A stretch of DNA of 64,000 nt from Carcharhinus amblyrhynchos. Its lineage: Eukaryota. The notes beneath the pieces were generated by a model. The model did no database searches, was not told the DNA's origin, and saw only the letters and a list, made by a program, of their open reading frames with translations. Of the stretch, positions 1,498 through 59,812 are shown one piece after another (position 1 is the first letter of the stretch; every line of letters begins with the position of its first letter). A program made the position numbers and the translations under genes. The stretch covers positions 12,834,001 to 12,898,000 of the forward strand of contig OZ336905.1 of the NCBI GenBank assembly GCA_965287045.1, in the 5' to 3' direction.

Positions 1498-1650
1498 CTG
1501 TTGCAACTGCTTCATAAGAGCATCTGTACTTTTTATTCCTTCATCCTTTTTGCTTTTCTTTCGAGAGTTGCTGCCTCTGTCGTTTGCCTTTTGTGTCCTT
1601 TTCGTTTTCGGGCCCAAGTTTTTCTTGCTAATTTCCTGAAGTTCCTTTAC
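1498..1650 (-). CDS. KMT2D: KMT2D coding exon (approx. human exon 40); the gene continues beyond the window's left edge
   Basis: Donor CAG|gtacca at 1497. Reads ...KKNLGPKTKRTQKANDRGSNSRKKSKKDEGIKSTDALMKQLQQ (human KPLTPKPKRVQKASDRLVSSRKKLRKEDGVRASEALLKQLKQ). Three in-frame acceptors are possible (exon start 1650, 1644 or 1635). Confidence 0.9.
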
Positions 1651-2990: not shown

Positions 2991-5900
2991 CTCTGAATTT
3001 CCAGTTGCACCTTGTAGTTTTCGATCTATCATCACAGCTTTGCTTTCAATGTGACCTTTTACAGTTAAATGCGTTCCATCTCCAGAGCGTTGTGCCACAA
3101 GCTGCAAGTTCTTAGTGCGTAAAAGTTTCTGGAGAAGCAGCTGTCCAGCCTCAGACCTTGGAGCAAGAAAAGAATGATCCCCTGCATTCAAGGCATTGAC
3201 AGAGTCAGTATTTGACTCGTGCTTTACAGCTCCTTCTGGAAATCCACAGCGAATTACATCAATGCTTTCCTGTTTCACTAAGTGACCTATACCTGCTGTG
3301 TTGGTGTCTTTGGTAGCACTCTCCTGTAGTGTAGGACAGCTGCCCTGTCTTCCTATGACTTTCTGTGTACACTCCTCTTGTCCATTGGTCTGATTCAACA
3401 ATGACGACTCTGATCTCAGCCCAGTGGATTCCTCCTTTGTTGCATGACTTGAGGGAGATATTGGGAAGTCAAACGTACAAGGTTTCTTCAAGTCACTTTG
3501 TTCATGGATCTCAACATTCATTCTGGCTTGAGACTCAGTTACTGAACCTGCTTTTCCAACAGTCTCATGTGGTTTTATTACCAATGTATCAGGCTTCGAA
3601 TCAGGTATCTTTTGAGGTATAATTGCTAGCGTGTCTGTCATGCAAGCACTACTTTCTTTGGATTCATGGTCTTTAAACAATTCTGGTTGTGACTGCATTA
3701 TTGTTTCCAAAGTTTCACCTTGTAGTGCCACATCTCCCAAGTTTGTTTTATTTAACTCTGGATGTGACATTTGTGAACGATTGCAATGAGCTTGGCCAGA
3801 CACCAATTCACTTCCTGACCCCATGTTCTGCCTTGCTCGTTTGTTTTGAATTGGATGGGCCATCTCTTGTGGCTTTCCGCCATGTTCGGTTTTTACCTGC
3901 TGAACATATACCATTCCTGGACGAAAGTGGCCTAAGCCAAGCTGTTGGCCAGTTATATGAACTGAACGCAGCCCTGCCTGCTGTTGCTGAAACGACTGTG
4001 AATTCATGATGTTTTGTACTCCCGGTCTTGGATCTCCCGTAGTTCCATGCTGCTGAGATGTTGCTACTCGCACCACTCCTTGTAAACTGAGACCATTATT
4101 CTGTTGTAGACCTGTTACAGCTTGTTGCTGTACACGTCTCATTAACTGACCCTGCTGATTGATAAGTCGCTGCTGTCCTGCAATGCCTTGTTGCATTGGT
4201 TGTTGTATTGATGTCACTGCTCGTGTTTGTAAATTCTGATACATCATACCTTGAGGTTGTCCCAGTCCTGCTCCATTCTTAGACAGCTGCTGCTGTCTCA
4301 TCATATTCTGAGTTAGAGGCTGGTTACGGTCTTGTCCCGATATGCACTGGGTAGGCAGCAGAGATTCTTGTTCCATTACAATTTGGCCTTGCTGCTGCTC
4401 CTGCCTCACTATGCCTGTAGGTGTTTGTTCCTGTTGCTGCTCCTGCTCCTTCTCATGTCCCACCATACCTGAAACCTGCAGGGGTTGCTGCCCACCAACT
4501 GTGCCCAAGTTCTGCATCTGCTGCCCATGGCCCACTGTACCTGGAGATTGCCTCTGCCCAGTTAGGTTCTGCAATTGTTGCTGTCCCTGACTTTGCCCCA
4601 ACATGCCTTGTGGATGTGGCTGCTGCTGTCCCTGCTCTTGACCTATCAAGTTCTGTGCCAGCTGCCCCTGCCCCATCAGGCTTTGTGGTTGCCCCTGCCT
4701 AACTACACTCTGAGGCTGCAACTGCCACTGCCCCATCAGGCCCTGTAGCATTTGCTGCTGCCCTTGTCTCATCCCAACCAAACCTTGAGGCTGCTGCTGT
4801 TGCTTTACATGTCCCAATGGACCCTGAGGCTGGGGCTGTCCCACTCCTATCATGGCCCGAGGCTGTGGTTGCTGCCCCATCCCCACTGTGCCCTGAGGTT
4901 GGGGCTGCTGCTGTCCAACTCCGATAATGCCCTGAGCCTGGGGCTGCTGAATAATCCCCACTGTGCCCTGAGGCTGCTGCTGTCCAACTCCTACCATGCC
5001 TGGAGGCTGGGGTTGCTGTTGTACCATGCCTGGAGGCTGGGGTTGCTGTTGTCCCATCCCTATTGTACATTGGGGTGACTGCTGTTGCTGTCCCATTCCC
5101 ACAGTGCTCTGCGGTGACTGCTGTTGCTGTCCCATTCCCACAGTGCCCTGCGGTGACTGCTGTTGCTGTCCCATTCCCACAGTGCTCTGCGGTGACTGCT
5201 GTTGCTGTCCCATTCCCACAGTGCTCTGCGGTGACTGCTGTTGCTGTCCCATTCCCACTGTACTCTGCGGTGACTGGGGTTGCTGCCCCACAGCCACTGC
5301 GCCCTGCTGCTGCCCCACAGCCACTGCGCCCTGCTGCTGCCCCACAGCCACTGCGCCCTGCTGCTGGGGTTGCTGCCCCACAGCCACTGCGCCCTGCTGC
5401 TGGGGTTGCTGCCCCACACCCACCGTGCCCTGCTGCTGCCCCACACCCACCGCGCCCTGCTGCTGGGGTTGCTGCCCCACACCCACCGTGTCCTGCTGCT
5501 GGGGTTGCTGACCCGCGCCCTGCTGCTGGGGTTGCTGCCCAACACCCACCGCGCCCTGCTGCTGGGGTTGCTGCCCCACACCCACCGCGCCCTGCTGCTG
5601 GGGTTGCTGCCCCACACCCACCGCGCCCTGCTGCTGGGGTTGCTGCCCCGCGCCCTGCTGCTGGGGTTGCTGCCCCGCGCCCTGCTGCTGGGGTTGCTGA
5701 CCCACAGCCCCCGCGCCCTGCTGCTGGGGTTGCTGACCCACAGCCCCCGCGCCCTGCTGCTGGGGTTGCTGACCCACAGCCCCCGCGCCCTGCTGCTGGG
5801 GTTGCTGACCCACAGCCCCCGCGCCCTGCTGCTGGGGTTGCTGACCCACAGCCCCCGCGCCCTGCTGCTGGGGTTGCTGACCCACAGCCCCCGCGCCCTG

Positions 5901-8900
5901 CTGCTGGGGTTGCTGACCCACAGCCCCCGCGCCCTGCTGCTGGGGTTGCTGCACCGCGCCCTGCTGCTGGGGTTGCTGACCCGCAGCCCCCGCGCCCTGC
6001 TGCTGGGGCTGCTGACCCGCAGCCCCCGCGCCCTGCTGCTGGGGCTGCTGACCCGCAGCCCCCGCGCCCTGCTGCTGGGGCTGCTGACCCGCAGCCCCCG
6101 CGCCCTGCTGCTGGGGCTGCTGACCCGCAGCCCCCGCGCCCTGCTGCTGGGGCTGCTGACCCGCAGCCCCCGCGCCCTGCTGCTGGGGCTGCTGACCCGC
6201 AGCCACCGCGCCCTGCTGCTGGGGCTGCTGACCCACAGCCACCGCGCCCTGCTGCTGGGGTTGCTGACCCACAGCCACCGCGCCCTGCTGCTGGGGTTGC
6301 TGACCCACAGCCACCGCGCCCTGCTGCTGGGGTTGCTGACCCACAGCCACCGCGCCCTGCTGCTGGGGTTGCTGACCCACAGCCACCGCGCCCTGCTGCT
6401 GGGGTTGCTGCCCCGCGCCCACGGTGCCCTGTTGCTGGGATTGCTGTCCCATACCCACTGTGCCTTGAGATGACTGCTGTTGCAGTCCCATACCCACTGC
6501 ACCTTGTTGCTGGGGTTGCTGTCCCATACCCACTGCACCTTGTTGCTGGGGTTGCTGTCCCATACCCACTGCGCCTTGAGATGACTGCTGTTGCAGTCCC
6601 ATACCCACTGCGCCTTGTTGCTGGGGTTGCTGTCCCATACCCACTGCGCCTTGTTGCTGGGGTTGCTGTCCCATACCCACTGCACCTTGTTGCTGGGGTT
6701 GCTGTCCCATACCCACTGCACCTTGTTGCTGGGGTTGCTGTCCCATACCCACTGCACCTTGTTGCTGGGGTTGCTGTCCCATACCCACTGCACCTTGTTG
6801 CTGGGGTTGCTGTCCCATACCCACTGCACCTTGTTGCTGGGGTTGCTGTCCCATACCCACTGCACCTTGTTGCTGGGGTTGCTGTCCCATACCCACTGCA
6901 CCTTGTTGCTGTCCCATACCCACTGCACCTTGTTGTTGGGGTTGCTGTCCCATACCCACTGCACCTTGTTGCTGTCCCATACCCACTGCACCTTGTTGCT
7001 GTCCCATACCCACTGCACCTTGAGATGACTGCTGCTGCTGCTGCCCCATACCCACTGCACCTTGTTGCTGGGGTTGCTGTCCCATACCCACTGCACCTTG
7101 TTGCTGGGGTTGCTGTCCCATACCCACTGCACCTTGTTGCTGTCCCATACCCACTGCACCTTGTTGCTGGGGTTGCTGTCCCATACTCACTGCGCCTTGA
7201 GATGACTGCTGCTGCTGTCCCATACCCAGTGCACCTTGTTGCTGTCCCATACCCACTGTGCCTTGAGATGACTGCTGCTGCTGTCCCATTCCCTGCCCCA
7301 ATGGGAGCTGCTGTCCCATTGGGCCCTGGGTTATCTGCTGTCCAATTGCTTGCTCCACTGTGCTCTGGGGCTGGGATGGTGTTTGCTGTCCTACTGTACT
7401 CTGGGGAAGAGATGGTGGCTGTGACTGCTGTCCTATCATGCCTTGGGCTTGACGGAGTTGTTGCTGTGGCCCGACTCCCATCGTAGCATGGGGCTGATTT
7501 TCTTGTCCCTGTCCAATAGTGCTCTGGGGCTGATGTGGCTGTCCTTGATCCATTGCTCCCTGAGGCTGGGATTGCTGCCCTTGCTCCAGTGAGACTTGGG
7601 ATGGATGCTGTTGCCTCATACCCTGCCCCATCATGCCCTGAGGCTGATGCTGCTGCTGTCCCTGTCCTATTATGCCTGGCAGTTGGTGCCTGATGACTTG
7701 CAGTGGAGCTGGCTGTCCCATTATGCTTTGTGTTGCTAGGTGTTGGCCCAAAACATCCTGAGATTGCTGCCTCATTATACCCTGCATTCTAGTTTGATGC
7801 CCTATTGTGCTTTGCTGCTGGCCTTGGAAGGGTGTGGAAAGTCTCAGAATACTGTTCTGTCTGATAACACTTTGAGAGTGGAGTTGTCCTGACACAGTTT
7901 GAAGGTGATGCTGTTGCAGTGGTGTCATTGTTCCCAACTGCTGACTCTGGGAAGCAACCCCTTGTTGATGCCCTATGAGTCCTTGCTGTTGCAAAGGAGC
8001 ACTGGATGCCTGTTGTTGTAAAACCAGATTTTGCTGTTGCTGTTGAGAGGTGAGGATTTGCTGTTGAACTGTAAGACCTTGTTGATGGACCAACTGCTGC
8101 GCCATAAGACCTTGCTGGGGCCGCGGAGGTTTTGGATGACTTGTAAGACCCTGTTGGTGGGGTTGCTGATGCCCAAGGAGGCCTTGCTGTTGACTCATCA
8201 GCCTTAAATGTTGCTGCTGTGGTGCCAGACTCTGCTGGTGTTGTGTTGCTGGCTGTGCCTGACCCATGTTGCTGTGCTGTTGGGGTAGTTGCTGCCCTGC
8301 AAGAACTTGCTGCTGCTGAGCAGATTGGTGCTGTGACTGGACAACAATCCCTTGCTGTTGTCCAATGAAGCCTTGCTGCTGTTGACCCATGACACCCTGC
8401 GGTGTTGGTTTGTTACCCACAATATTTTGCTGAGTTGTTGGCTGAAGCTGTCCAATGATACCTTGTTGCTGCAGCTTGCCCATGATGCTTTGCTGCTGAG
8501 ATGGCCCTACAAGTCCTTGCTGTTGAATAAGTTGCATTCTTTGCTGCAGTTGAAGCTGTCTCTCCTGCAAGAGTCTGCTTTCATTTGTAAGAGTTTGAGC
8601 AGCAGAATTTCCAGGAAAAAAACTGGCTGAGGGAGCAGAAGATACAGTTCCTGAGGCAGAGGGATATTCCTGCTGCTGAGACACAGCTGAGGCTAAGAAT
8701 GTTGGTCCCTGTTGCAGCGGTACTGTAGCCCCGATTTGTGGCACTCTTATATTTCCTGCATGTCCTATTAGTGTATTTGGTTGCTGAGCTATTGCTTGAG
8801 ATCCAAGGATTGCCCCTCCTTGCTGGGCTAATGCTGCTGATAACATAGGTGTTGAAAGTTTGGGCATTACTCTCGGATTCTGGGATGAAGTTGTCGCCAT

Positions 8901-8990
8901 CATCCCCGAGGGGGATAAAGAACATTTCTGTTGCTGTTTATTCCGATATTCTGTCATAAGGTTTGTATGCTCTTTTTGCTGTTTACGGAC
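2991..8990 (-). CDS. KMT2D: KMT2D giant Q-rich exon (approx. human exon 39), 6000 nt / 2000 codons, phase 0-0
   Basis: atatgttttag|GTCCGTAAACAG (VRKQQKEHTNLMTEYRNKQQQ) ... AATTCAGAG|gttagt. Uninterrupted ORF; C-terminal conserved RSEAGQLLLQKLLRTKN LXXLL block. Confidence 0.96.
5040..7290 (-). repeat. Coding minisatellite (27/36/39-bp units) within the KMT2D Q-rich exon
   Basis: Directly visible tandem units, e.g. ccatacccactgcaccttgttgctggggttgctgtc (36 bp; GMGQQPQQQGAV). Roughly 60-65 units, all multiples of 3; degenerate copies extend to about 4480 and 7660. Confidence 0.98.
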
Positions 8991-9184
8991 CTAAAACATA
9001 TGTATTAAAAAAAAACTTAGAGAACTGAAATATAGTGGAGATTAGACAAAAAGTCAGTACAATTTTATAATGAACCACCTAACTGGCACATACCAAATCA
9101 ACACTAATTTCAGTGGGATTAGTTAAATACAGTTGATTTGTTTTGCAACCAATTTCACAATATTAACTGTACTGCCATACTATA

Positions 9185-10160: not shown

Positions 10161-10393
10161 CTGATCAAGTTGTTTCTGGATTTTACTTTGTTGCTCTGTA
10201 ACTCGCTTAAGTTTTTCTGCATCAGCCTCCGGAAACTCACGCCCCGCCTTCTTGGCTGTCCGCTGTTTGGCACATAATGCTTTTCTAGACTTCCTATGGA
10301 CACCAATCTGATCTTCTAAAAATTTCAGCTGCATTTGAAGTAGCTGTTGTGTGTGGAGCAGCCATTCTTCATATTGACGGTGTTCTGCCTCAT
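10161..10393 (-). CDS. KMT2D: KMT2D coding exon (approx. human exon 38), 233 nt, coiled coil
   Basis: tcttgtgctctag| ... CAG|gtagga. Reads NEAEHRQYEEWLLHTQQLLQMQLKFLEDQIGVHRKSRKALCAKQRTAKKAGREFPEADAEKLKRVTEQQSKIQKQLDQ. Confidence 0.97.
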
Positions 10394-10465
10394 CTAGAGC
10401 ACAAGAACCAAACAATACAACTGACATATCCAAAATATTAAAATCTTCGTGTGCAATTTTTGAAC

Positions 10466-25194: not shown

Positions 25195-25925
25195 AATTTT
25201 TTTTATTCATTCGTGGGACATGGGCATCGTTGGCTGGCCAACATTTATTGCCCATCCTTAGTTGCCCTCGAGAAGGTGGTGCTGAGCTGCCATCCTGAAT
25301 CGCTGCAGTCCATGTTCTGTGGGTTAACCCACAATGCCGTTAGGGAGGGAATTCTGACCCAGTGACACTGAAGGAACGGCTGATATATTTCCAAGTCAGG
25401 GTGGTGAATAGCTTGGAGGGGAACTTGCAGGTGGTGGTGTTCCCAGGTATCTGCTGCCCTTGTCCTTCTAGATAGAAGTGGTTGTGGGTTTGGAAGGTGC
25501 TGTCTAAGGGTCTTTGGTGAATTGCTGCAGTTCATCTTGAAGATGGTCCACACTGCTCCTGAGCCTCGGTGGTGGAGGGAGTGGATGTTTGTCAGTGTGG
25601 TGTCAAGCAAGCTGGCTGCTTTGTCCTGGATGGTGTCAAGCTTCTCAAGTGTTGTTGGAGCTGCACCCATCCAGGCAAGCGGGGAGTATTCCATCACACT
25701 CCTGACTTGTGCCTCGTAGATGGTGGAGAGGCTTTGGGGGATCAGGTGGCGAGTTACTCGTCCCATTATTCTTAGCCTCTGACCTGCTCTTGTAGCCACT
25801 GTGTTTATGTGGCGAGTCCAGCTGAGTTTCTGGTCAACAGTTATGCAAAGGATGTTAACAGTGGGGAATTCAGTGATGGTAAACACCACTGAATGTCAAG
25901 GGACGGTGATTAGAATGTTTCTTAT
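25195..25925 (-). mobile_element. CR1/L2-clade LINE 3' region (RT C-terminus + UTR)
   Basis: 214-aa ORF ...LSWTRHINTVATRAGQRL...IYEAQVRSVMEYSPLAWMGAAPTTLEKLDTIQDKA... Confidence 0.85.
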
Positions 25926-38486: not shown

Positions 38487-40861
38487 CTGTATCTGGGAAG
38501 AAAGCATTGGCTAATTGTTGCTGCTGTTGCATCACAACTTGCTGTGTCTGCTGCATGATGCCCAATTGCGATACAGCCAACTGCTGAGTTGACAGCAATT
38601 GCGGTGAGGTCATATGTTGACTCTGCTGTGAAGCCACTATCTGCTGTGAAGCCACTATCTGCTGTGGTGGATGTTGCCCTGTTGCCACATGCTGCTGCTG
38701 TTGGGACATGACTACATGCGGTGAGGCTCCAAGCCGTTGTTGCGATGCTGTCAACTGTTGCTGCTGTGAAGATGGAAGAGATCGTGGGATTCCCAAGTGA
38801 TGATGCTGTATCACTCCCAAGATATGTTGCTGTGGCAGGTTTAGACTCTGTGGTGGCCCTTCAAGGTGCTGAGATTGCTGTGTCGTTGGAAGGTGTTGGG
38901 AAAGTCCTGGATGACTCTGTTGATGTGAAACCTCAAGTTGTTGCTGCTGTTGCAGAACTGGAAGGGCCTTTGGTCCTGAATGCTGTTGCTGTGCAGGTAC
39001 ACACTGTGATCCTCCCAATTGCTGTTCCATTTTCTCTTGCTCAAGTAAATCGTGCAGAAGTAGTGGAAGCTCACTTGCTTCCAAAGAACTTTCTACTTTG
39101 ACAAGGTCATCCACAGATCGACGTTTAGGCTCCATACTGGGCACATGATGGCACATCTCATCTAGTCCTAGTTTACCCAACGGCGGCCTAGACTGGACAG
39201 CCAGAGGCATCTTGGACACTATCTGAGCTGAAGATGTGCAGGGCATACTTTCTAAATCTAAGTTAGAATGCCCATTGCTGGGAACGCGTACAGTTCGATG
39301 GCCACTTGAAGCAATTGTACTACTTTGAGTAGTAGTTTGTGTTCCACTGGTAGTACATGTAGATGTCTGACACAGTGCTACACTTGTGTTAACACTAAGC
39401 CCAGTTCCAATACCGAGGAGCATCGACACTGCTCCCCTTTCATCATCCCCCTTTGGTGGACTTTCTGATTTTATCAAAACTGTCTGTGCGTTGGACGTAT
39501 TTGCTACAAACTGGCAAGCTGAATTTTGGGAAATGTTCTCTTCAACCTTTAGTACTAAATCAAGAGTAGGTTTAGGAGAATTGTCAGTAGATGGGGCTCT
39601 GCTGACGGGATCACTGCACTGACTGCCAGTATTAGTCTCTGAATTGACGTTATTCACTGTCTCACACATAACCCTATCAGAAGTAGACAGAGCATCAGCA
39701 ATGACATCTGATTTAGCCATTGCTTTTTCATGCTCCTCTCCCTTTTCTGTCTTTTCCAAATCAGATTTGTTGACTTTATCATTTGTACACTTAATCGCTG
39801 GGTCGACAGCACCTTGATCAGTCAATATACACTGACCCTCTTCTGCTTTCTCATTTGCAGATTCCACTAAACGCAGCTGCTCTGTAAAGATGTCTTTTTT
39901 ATCTCCGGTGTCTAGCTCAGGGTCAGTATAAGCCAACAGATCAAATTCTTCACACTTCAGAAGATCATCCAGATGGGGGTCATTGGTTTCCAGGTTATCA
40001 AGGTTACCAAGCTCATCATCTGTCTTACTGTCTGGGTCAAGACTCAGATTGGCAAGGTCATCTTCTTCATCTAGCTCTTTAGGTGAATCAAGTTCCTCAT
40101 CTAAGGCTTTTTCTACCGAGTCATGACAAGGAATCTTGCGAGGATCCAACTCTGCATGCTCTGTGACTACATTGGAGATTGATGGGACAGAGTTAAGTGG
40201 AAAGGATACCGAGCTGTCCTTCAAACTATCTGAACAGCAACTAGAAGTGGATGATGTTGTCGAAGTTGTCTGAAATGTCTGTTGTGATTCAGCTTGTACG
40301 GTGGAATCTAACGGCTCTTTTGTTTGAACATGCTGATGAGCGCTTGATACTTCCACTGAATGAGGTGAAGATGGCAACGGAGTGGAAATATTCTGCTGGG
40401 GCAAGAGCGTAATCCCAACTGGTGACTGCGGCAAAGACGTACCTGGACCTCTTGACATCACCTTGCACCCCTGCATTTGATGGGCAAACGGGCTGATTTC
40501 TTGATTTGGTATTGGAAGGCGCGGTCTTGATTGGGGATTTCGCTGTGCCAACTGGGCAGCAATGGGCAAGCGCTGGGAATTATGTCTCAATTCTATATAC
40601 TGAGGACTCACAGGAATTGGTGAAGCCACAATTTGTTGCTGTGCATTCTGAAAAGTGATCTGAGTGGCAATTCTAGGATTAAGTCCAGCTGTGCTGTTCA
40701 CTTGCATGGTCATTGCAGGCCTGTTTACATGCAAAACTTCAGGTTGCTGAAAACGAGTCTGTCCAGGAAGTCTCTGCACCAACTGCTGCTGCCATTGTTG
40801 CTGTTGAGCAGTTGGTAAGCTTCTTGGGTGAAATCCTTGTGGGCTACCAACTCCTGATTGT
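38487..40861 (-). CDS. KMT2D: KMT2D large exon (approx. human exon 34), 2375 nt, phase 2-1
   Basis: ttttaccatctag| ... G|gtatag. Lies in the 831-aa ORF frame; contains YIELRHN, DDELGNLDNLETNDPHLDDLLKCEEFDLLAYTDPELDTGDKKDIF, SELPLLLHDLLEQEK and LANAFFPDT. Confidence 0.96.
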
Positions 40862-44660: not shown

Positions 44661-45403
44661 TGCAGACTGGTCATTTTCAATTTTTCTAATCAAATGCAGA
44701 AGTTTGGTGAGAAGGGGAAGTTCAGTGAGAAGGGGAGGGAGGCATTCCCTTGCCTTTTCTAACTTTTTCACCCTGTAGTAATTGGATTTTGCTCCATTAC
44801 AGGGGAGGAAGTGAGCTGTTGCTAAGTATCTGGTGAATATCCAGTAAGCGGCAAAGGTTTATTTTCCAAAGGTTTAAAATAGTACTGGAGTTTGTGATAA
44901 GATTAATAAATATCTAAAAGAAAAAAATGAATGAAATAGTTAATTAATTAAAGCTCATAATGGCAAGACAGGTGATGTGCCAACGCTGCAACACATGGGA
45001 GCTCTCAGATACCAATTTATCCAGGGCAAGCACGTCTGCAGTTAAGTGCCTGTGGCTTCAGAAACTTCAGTTCAGAGTCACTGAGCTAGAGGCTGATCTA
45101 CGGACAATGCGACACATCAGGGACAGCGAGAGTTACCTGGACACTGTTTCAGGAGGCGGTCACACCTTTAGATAGGATCTTTTGGTTTGGAAAGTTATCA
45201 GGAGCAAGAGGGTGTGACTGCAGCTCAGGGAGGCAAAGGGAACCAGTGTCAACCTCTGCAATTGTCCAACAAGTTTGAGGTTCTTTCAGCTTGTGTGGGT
45301 GAGAGTGGGGGCTGCAGGGTGGATGAGCTGAATGACCATGGTACAGGATGCCATTCAAGTGAGGGGAGCACATAAGAATGTAGTGGTAGTAGGGGACAGT
45401 ATA

Positions 45404-50615: not shown

Positions 50616-50866
50616 CTGGGTAATCATGTTTTAGGTTCGGGAAGTTGATATTTGCGTAGAGAACAGGTGATATGGTTGATAATTCTCCCAAAGCCTCATC
50701 TTTTTCCCATCTCAATATACTTCGCTGGTTGTAGGAGAGCCCATCTCCTTCTCCCTCTGTCGGAGTGGTAGGGGTAGTTGGAGTGGTAGGGGTAGCTGGG
50801 GTGGCTGGGGTTGTCCATGGACTCTGTTGCTCTCCACTGTCTGGACTGAAAGGTATACTCCTTTCC
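50616..50866 (-). CDS. KMT2D: KMT2D coding exon (approx. human exon 28), 251 nt; TP-repeat and start of HMG-like box
   Basis: tttgtttttcag| ... |gtatga. Reads ...TPTTPTEGEGDGLSYNQRSILRWEKDEALGELSTISPVLYANINFPNLKHDYP. This is diagnostic of KMT2D rather than KMT2C, which reads DTMSNAQRSTLKWEKEEALGEMATVAPVLY. Confidence 0.96.
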
Positions 50867-58416: not shown

Positions 58417-59812
58417 AATGGAGAGTTCTGGCCTCAGACAGAGCATATAAAGCACAGATAGTTTACAGATTACTGATTAGAATACGAATCCTTACACCTA
58501 ACCTGCTGTTCAAGACCTGAAGTGGCTGACAATGTGAGTGGAAGGAGCACTGATCACAGGTTAAAGAGATGCGTATTGTCTCCAGACAGTACAGTGAATG
58601 AGGTTTTGCAAACCCAGGCAAGTGTTGGCAAATCAGTTGCATTCTTGGACACATGCATCTCCATTAAGGACGGTCACCTCAGCACCTCACTGTACCGCAA
58701 GCCCACAGACAATCTCACAATGCTCCACTTCTCCAGCTTTCACCCTAAACATGTTAAAGAAGCCATCCCCTATGGACAAGCCCTCCATATACACAGGATT
58801 TGCTCAGATGAGGAGGATCGTGACAGACACCTCCAAACGCTGAAAGATGCCCTCTTAAGAACAGGATATGGCGCTCGACTCATAGATCGACAGTTCCGAC
58901 GTGCCACAGCGAAAAACCGCACCGATCTCCTCAGAAGACAAACACGGGACACAGTGGACAGAGTACCCTTCGTCGTCCAGTACTTCCCTGGAGCGGAGAA
59001 GCTACGACATCTTCTCCGGAGTCTTCAACATATCATTGATGAAGATGAACATCTCGCCAGGGCCATCCCCACACCCCCACTTCTTGCCTTCAGACAACCA
59101 CACAACCTCAAACAGACCACTGTTCGCAGCAAACTACCCAGTCTTCAGGAGAACAGTGACCAGGACACCACACAACCTTGCCACAGCAACCTCTGCAAGA
59201 CATGCCGGATCATCGACACGGATACCATCATCACACGTGAGAATACCATCCACCAGGTACACGGTAAATACTCTTGCAACTCGGCCAACATTGTCTACCT
59301 GATACGTTGCACGAAAGGATGTCCCGAAGCATGGTACATCGGGGAGACCATGCAGACGCTACGACAACGGATGAATGAACGTCGCTCGACAATCACCAGG
59401 CAAGACTGTTCCCCTTCCTGTTGGCGAACACTTCAGTGGTCACGGGCATTCAACCTGACCTTCGGGTAAGCATTCTCAAAGGCGGCCTTCACGACACACG
59501 ACAGCGCAGAGTCGCTGAGCAGAGACTGATAGCCAAGTTCCACACACATGAGGACAGTCTCAACAAGGATCTTGGGTTCATGTCGCACTATCTGTAACCC
59601 CCAACACTTGCCTGGGTTTGCAAAACCTCACTCACTGTACTGCCTGGAGACAATACACATCTCTTTAACCTGTGATCAGTGCTCCTTCCACTCACATTGT
59701 CGGCCACTTCAAGACTTGAACAGCAGGTTAGGTGTAAAGATTCGCATTCTAATCAGTAGTCTGTAAACTGTCTGTGCTTTATATGCTCTGTCTGAGGCCA
59801 GAACTCTCCATT

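Follow-up and report, generated by a model that had tools for sequence, protein, structure and literature searches.

What is a coding tandem repeat of 744 amino acids (aa) doing inside a single exon of KMT2D? The question was raised by a stretch of 64,000 nucleotides (nt) of the shark Carcharhinus amblyrhynchos (contig OZ336905.1, positions 12,834,001 to 12,898,000; the window, in whose coordinates features are given below), in which an initial annotation, made from the letters alone, had noted a glutenin- or silk-like minisatellite that added ~750 aa to the glutamine (Q)-rich, prion-like domain of KMT2D. We found that the array is real, that it is shared by two sharks, C. amblyrhynchos and the bamboo shark Chiloscyllium punctatum, and that no earlier description was found in the literature searched. 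Its probable, though far from certain, explanation is GC-biased turnover of a minisatellite within a disordered domain that tolerates such change, adding disordered chain and not an elastic or structured module. KMT2D also likely lies on the shark X chromosome, in which case males would have a single copy.

The giant Q-rich exon, which we take to be the counterpart of human exon 39, occupied 8990-2991 of the minus strand. Its length was precisely 6000 nt, as initially described, with AG/GT flanks and 2000 codons with zero stops. The array within it (7292-5061; 2232 nt, exon residues 567-1310) consisted of 64 units, in agreement with an estimate of 60-65. The annotated unit lengths of 27, 36, and 39 nt, all multiples of 3, accounted for 63 of these (12, 41, and 10 units, respectively), and the remaining unit was 42 nt long. 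The annotated bounds, 5040 to 7290, were close to this core, but degenerate units reached ~4822. The structure of the exon and its neighbors was as follows (GC3, GC content at third codon positions).

2991..8990, minus strand: KMT2D Q-rich giant exon; 6000 nt, 2000 aa; 5' splice junction in RNA-type contigs X5 and X19.
5061..7292, minus strand: coding minisatellite, 64 units, 744 aa, from repeat and frame analysis.
6420..7292, minus strand: 5' block of GMG-type units; GC 58%, GC3 0.44.
5295..6419, minus strand: middle block of derived, GC-rich AVG/AAG/GVG units; GC 76%, GC3 0.80; identical runs of 4, 6, and 7 units.
5061..5294, minus strand: 3' block of six 39-nt (13-aa) units, a period found throughout the bamboo shark array.
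4822..5060, minus strand: tail of degenerate repeats that align in part to bamboo shark.
7872..7964 (exon aa 343-373), minus strand: probable remnant of the conserved NPQLRHL landmark (weak; profile 12.5 bits).
10161..10397, minus strand: upstream conserved exon (coiled-coil region), spliced to 8990, from contigs and homology.
1498..1650, minus strand: downstream exon, its junction predicted from AG/GT and homology.

Tandem Repeats Finder recovered the array independently (period 36, score 1749), and 50 of 50 shuffled arrays were without periodic cover. The units comprised 31 distinct DNA sequences and 26 distinct peptides, and the window had no N. With in-frame tandem units of the 10-60 nt class, the array is a coding minisatellite. 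The open frame by itself was weak evidence, because two further frames were also stop-free across the array; the open reading frames (ORFs) in other phases (4699-7788, minus; 4955-7486, plus; 5060-7186, minus; 1029, 843, and 708 aa, respectively) were rejected as by-products of the repeat.

Homology identified the gene carrying the array as KMT2D, in line with the initial assignment. The exons of the window and the next 10 kb matched KMT2D of bamboo shark and caecilian collinearly, the exons other than the array exon being 81-98% identical to those of bamboo shark. Named matches for the region of the array exon (best 120 of 604) were nearly all KMT2D rather than KMT2C, and a 501-base stretch of the flank had a single match in the 2.9-Gb genome. 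The C-terminal PHD/FYR/SET domains were present in the bamboo shark protein (GCC20758.1).

This protein, named only "hypothetical protein", was also the closest one found. Its equivalent region had 1807 aa, including an array of 604 aa with mostly 13-aa units. Since the flanks were 81% and 73% identical between the two sharks and the boundary units matched (inner units differed), sequence comparison places the two arrays as homologous and at the same site. The C. amblyrhynchos array was 140 aa longer and kept 13-aa units mostly near its ends, and the composition was nearly equal in the two: Q 35-41%, G 21-23%, and P 7%. The proposed gain of ~750 aa therefore held against bony vertebrates only, the difference from bamboo shark being 140 aa, and the array was not private to the lineage of C. 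amblyrhynchos, given the homologous bamboo shark array and shorter analogous arrays in other vertebrates.

Regions of other vertebrates were surveyed among the best 120 of 604 matches, of which 115 had both anchors and 5 were dropped. The 114 non-shark regions ranged from 361 to 1631 aa (median 925), versus 1948 aa here and 1755 aa in bamboo shark; those of pika and sengi (840 and 790 aa) roughly agreed with the ~2.8 kb given for human exon 39 in the annotation. With a periodic array defined by at least 150 periodic residues, 28 of the 114 bony-vertebrate records, a count that includes isoforms and relatives and is not one of independent cases, had such an array, rich in Q, G, and M and always shorter: 18 bird-type, 6 sea-turtle (2 species), 2 tarpon, 1 caecilian, and 1 unnamed. 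The bird, sea-turtle, and tarpon arrays (P0003-P0038, P0052, P0062) had 150-280 aa, with hydrophobic-G-Q units, short Q runs, and periods of 11, 14, and 7/14 aa, respectively; tortoise and alligator records fell below the threshold. In amphibians (P0043, P0044, P0014, P0133), the region measured 1282-1643 aa and its Q-rich expansions followed the NPQLRHL motif; one frog and one newt reached 1631 aa without periodicity by the same measure. Periodic Q-rich arrays thus recur in this exon at differing sites, and the C. amblyrhynchos array is the longest periodic case seen of this tendency. Bamboo shark was the sole other cartilaginous fish in the homologue searches (1 among 606 candidates of up to 5000 aa; best 120 of 604; 8000 scored), which is not evidence of absence elsewhere. 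No ray, skate, or chimaera sequence was recovered in these searches, and a representative search gave 10 unnamed, bony-vertebrate-like matches.

The array consisted of Q (40.6%), G (22.8%), A (11.3%), V (9.1%), P (6.9%), and M (4.0%). One Asp was the sole charged residue, and there were zero aromatic residues (no Tyr) and 3 Leu in 744 aa, as anticipated by the annotation, which had described the array as nearly free of both charged and aromatic residues. Because the longest Q run was 5 and only 33 of 302 Q lay within runs of at least 4, the array is not polyglutamine (polyQ) itself. The motif [MVIL]GQ was also enriched outside the array (23 versus 6.5 expected), and hydrophobic-G-Q enrichment occurred in 32 of 116 regions; the array therefore amplifies a motif that was already local.

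The suggested check of prion-likeness and disorder gave a positive outcome: by PLAAC-like scoring with assumed residue frequencies, 1423 residues of the shark region lay in prion-like windows versus 289 in pika, and AlphaFold applied to 395 aa of the array (single sequence, and hence weak) gave a predicted local distance difference test (pLDDT) value of 31.8, below 50 at 395 of 395 residues, without secondary structure. By prion-like score and low pLDDT together, the array is a prion-like low-complexity sequence, and these predictions suggest a long, disordered, weakly cohesive chain. On the other hand, likeness to glutenin and silk ends at composition. Although GQQ occurred at 61 places and GAGA 13 times, a motif count of the array gave zero for PGQGQQ, GPGQQ, GYY, PG, GP, GPG, and AAAA. 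No Pfam family, glutenin included, matched the array over its cut-off (only Drf_FH1 appeared, with an E value of 0.017, under its cut-off), and a search of the ESM Atlas returned nothing at 0.9 or above. For elastomeric proteins a threshold in Pro+Gly has been described, with glutenin placed in a coexistence zone (PMC5424786); the corresponding contents here were P 6.9% and G 22.8%.

The annotation had also supposed that the periodic polymer replaced or extended polyQ. A profile of NPQLRHL, built from 66 bony-vertebrate variants, had its best score in each shark at exon aa 343-373 (12.5 bits here and 12.1 bits in bamboo shark; best of 200 shuffles, 11.5), a weak landmark; profiles of LRLS, SPQEPK, and KQE did not exceed the best shuffles. 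The expansions of frog, newt, and caecilian came after NPQLRHL, and the main polyQ cluster of pika came before it, together with the bird, turtle, and tarpon arrays. Since the shark array follows the landmark that the pika cluster precedes, a place downstream of the polyQ tract of mammals is probable for it, rather than replacement of that tract. A gene resembling PAXIP1, a partner of KMT2D, and so named from a BRCT match, had an ordinary Q/H/L tract in its Q-rich exon (L025:7281-7808), with 30 Q in runs of at least 4 and no matching expansion. KMT2D and PAXIP1 polyQ lengths are reported to co-vary in primates, human PAXIP1 having a total of 55 Q, in the part of PMC8121095 available.

How the array came to its present form was examined through changes among the 36-nt units. 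The GMG unit, shared with bamboo shark and located at both array ends, was taken as ancestral. Among changes present in at least two units, 9 went from A/T to G/C (W>S) and 0 in the reverse direction (S>W), a departure from 50:50 with a binomial p of 0.002; 2 more were neutral. Singletons, by contrast, comprised 6 S>W and 2 W>S. GC-biased conversion predicts that new changes lean toward AT and spreading ones toward GC; we therefore infer GC-biased turnover from the AT-ward singletons and GC-ward spread changes. GC3 was 0.80 in the middle block, whereas the 5' block, the flanks, and three other exons had values of 0.36-0.44. Four spread changes altered residues (M>V, V>A, V>G, and G>A), three of them GC-ward, and since residue changes followed the GC direction, this turnover argues for loose constraint on the unit sequence rather than for tuned amino acids.

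We propose that amplification of an ancestral unit of 13 aa preceded the separation of the two sharks and that 12- and 9-aa derivatives may then have spread in blocks. The array would turn over by slippage and unequal exchange, with GC bias, and selection would remove frameshifts and stops, which would cut off the SET domain, leaving length and the small residues G, A, V, and M presumably free to drift. Runs of no more than five Q, broken by Gly and Pro, are predicted to prevent polyQ helices, and the greater length is predicted to favor condensate formation modestly. Several points weigh against this explanation. An array of ~600-750 aa with nearly the same composition was kept in both sharks despite differing units, a pattern suggestive of selection for either length or composition. 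The nine GC-ward changes were not independent, several occurring on one amplified unit; their polarity depends on the ancestry of the GMG unit, synonymous sites not being polarizable from a protein outgroup; and the comparison comprised two cartilaginous-fish sequences only.

Selection on length leads to an alternative in which the array is under selection as a length-tuned modulator of the material properties of KMT2D condensates, the tunable dial suggested in the annotation; we consider this doubtful. As the annotation stated, the Q-rich region is prion-like in composition and tied to KMT2D/MLL4 condensates: in the available part of PMC13584762, the human prion-like domain (aa 3561-4270; polyQ, 3898-3974) forms mechanosensitive condensates, polyQ deletion weakens these condensates, and the response to confinement is abolished when Leu is changed to Ala. 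The surplus of prion-like residues over pika and the composition kept between the two sharks are consistent with such a role. However, the residue changes followed the GC direction and elastomer motifs were absent. Furthermore, the frog and newt regions of 1631 aa are aperiodic by the measure used here, and therefore a long domain does not need periodicity.

A second alternative concerns dosage. KMT2D is haploinsufficient in humans, the single-copy state being Kabuki syndrome, and elasmobranchs are without chromosome-wide dosage compensation. If KMT2D has long been hemizygous on an uncompensated male X, a self-renewing minisatellite that doubles the prion-like domain might buffer the halved dose by condensate valence, more cohesive chain per molecule giving condensates at a lower concentration. 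This seems improbable to us, although X linkage itself is likely. The contig bearing KMT2D, C36 (17.3 Mb), carried NRAMP2-like, POU6F1-like (a homeobox name that we assume), and IGFBP5-like genes and KMT2D at 6.33, 6.39, 9.06, and 12.84 Mb, respectively. The NRAMP gene of C36 was nearer to NRAMP2 than to NRAMP1 (88 versus 78 bits), the scores of a copy on C11 being the reverse. In the available part of Lee et al. (10.1101/2025.02.26.637739), nramp2-like and igfbp5-like are among five genes on the X in all 13 elasmobranch species. Because C36 bears these two genes reported on every elasmobranch X examined, KMT2D quite likely lies in the differentiated shark X and would hence be present in one copy in males. 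The count was two of five; ahr-like and sp5-like were not searched. Of two further types of X marker, a keratin-head search had no match anywhere in the genome and an activin-receptor search had four matches, none on C36; CNPY-type matches lay on C2, C4, C44, and the unplaced C1321, with none on C36. Three homeoboxes of posterior Hox type, which are probably those of HoxC10, C11, and C12 by names that we assume, lay outside the three assembled clusters, on unplaced contigs of 23-60 kb (L008, L009, and L010; C1379, C1178, and C865) and not on C36, and the pseudoautosomal end may be unassembled. According to the part of PMC12318234 available, the elasmobranch X has small pseudoautosomal ends bearing HoxC, and expression of its genes is ~1.5-fold female-biased. 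Against dosage buffering, X linkage comes from two markers only, the frog and newt regions are nearly as long without an elasmobranch X, KMT2D was not found listed on the X in the available papers and supplement text searched, and the searches recovered no sequence from a chimaera, the key outgroup.

A further NRAMP2-like gene was observed on an unplaced contig of 175 kb (L006; C355), and another NRAMP match on C1097; the former may be a duplicate, a pseudogene, or a sex-linked copy.

That the array length arose by over-expansion of a shorter repeat in assembly is very unlikely. Four runs of 4-7 identical units were present and no contig record spanned the array; on the other hand, the 31 distinct units stood in ordered blocks, the longest identical run was 252 nt, and the independent assembly of bamboo shark carried a 604-aa array. 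Four runs of short-read contigs (X5, X19, X4, and X9) were aligned to the 5' flank only (7293-9040); X5 and X19 were treated as RNA solely since they show a splice junction, X4 as DNA, perhaps of the source study, and X9 as RNA by guess. Contigs of X5 and X19 exited the genome at the exon start and resumed in the upstream exon (10161 to 8990). Those of X5, X4, and X9 entered the array and ended at 7260, 7248, and 7239, respectively, the spliced X5 contig extending 33 nt into it. In a graph of the assembled exon at k=31, the value that we assume for these contigs, the first three branch points fell exactly at these positions. These came from 30-mers that recur further in, at unit 3 and at units near 6479 and 6470, as far as 800 nt into the array, and they disappeared once the inner units were removed from the graph. 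The contig ends therefore point to unit 3 in spliced X5 and to deeper units in X4 and X9. X4 and X9 continued through earlier branch points, perhaps because of other alleles or of graph cleaning, and passage by X4 of the point where X5 stops is a weak hint of copy-number variation. X19 ran 62 letters beyond its aligned stretch to an end that, if collinear, would be 7231, no predicted branch point; because X19 was ~2% divergent, this end counts neither way.

Removal of the array by splicing as an exitron is hardly credible: donor-like TGG|GTATGG occurred 23 times, the array length is a multiple of 3, and no RNA contig spans the array, but the spliced X5 contig runs into it and stops at the unit-3 branch point, X9 (not shown to be spliced) stops at one from the unit near 6470, and the array is rich in purines, the 15 nt ahead of any AG containing no more than 9 pyrimidines.

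Elsewhere in the window, short repeats with an 18-nt period and 2-3 copies were located at 38622-38666 (inside another KMT2D exon), 44699-44736, and 50762-50811. Two intronic ORFs, at 25245-25895 (minus) and 58477-59469 (plus), resembled retroelement remnants, which we take to be of the LINE (long interspersed nuclear element) type and Penelope type, respectively.

In the available parts of the literature on KMT2D polyQ and prion-like domains, shark tandem repeats, and the elasmobranch X and HoxC, neither the array nor X-linked KMT2D was found described; the X gene tables of Lee et al. may list KMT2D. Supplement text of the papers searched had no mention of KMT2D. The KMT2D exon offers a natural series for one condensate-forming domain across vertebrates: mammals have polyQ punctuated by leucines, birds and turtles have short periodic arrays, amphibians have long Q-rich sequence without periodicity, and sharks have periodic arrays of 600-750 aa. 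Swapping members of this series would test whether the polyQ helix of human MLL4 is needed or a Q-rich chain is enough. If X linkage is true, male sharks live with a single copy of the Kabuki-syndrome gene, notable whatever the array does.

High-molecular-weight (HMW) glutenin contains PGQGQQ hexapeptides and Tyr-bearing nonapeptides, and spidroin MaSp2 contains GPGXX and poly-Ala blocks. The array is likewise a Q/G-rich periodic polymer, but differs in the absence of these motifs, in a Pro content of only 6.9%, and in belonging to a nuclear enzyme rather than a cross-linked structural protein. In coding minisatellites that evolve in concert, for example the zinc-finger array of PRDM9, in-frame units are similarly homogenized in blocks, whereas the units here are disordered and of low complexity and show no sign that their residues are under positive selection. 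The bird, sea-turtle, and tarpon KMT2D arrays lie in the same exon and have similar units of hydrophobic-G-Q with short Q runs, but directly follow an RMQL motif, upstream of the NPQLRHL landmark; this differing placement suggests that they are probably of separate origin. The human MLL4 prion-like domain, as described in the available part of PMC13584762, is the same exon and domain, and is Q-rich, almost without aromatic or charged residues, and predicted to be disordered, as in shark; in contrast, the shark region is approximately twice as long, periodic, and Gly-rich, with no Q run above 5, and its array is without the interspersed leucines of the human polyQ tract. The closest relative remains the bamboo shark array, in which mostly 13-aa units are more diverged, whereas that of C. 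amblyrhynchos has mostly 12- and 9-aa units, recently homogenized, with a GC-rich block.

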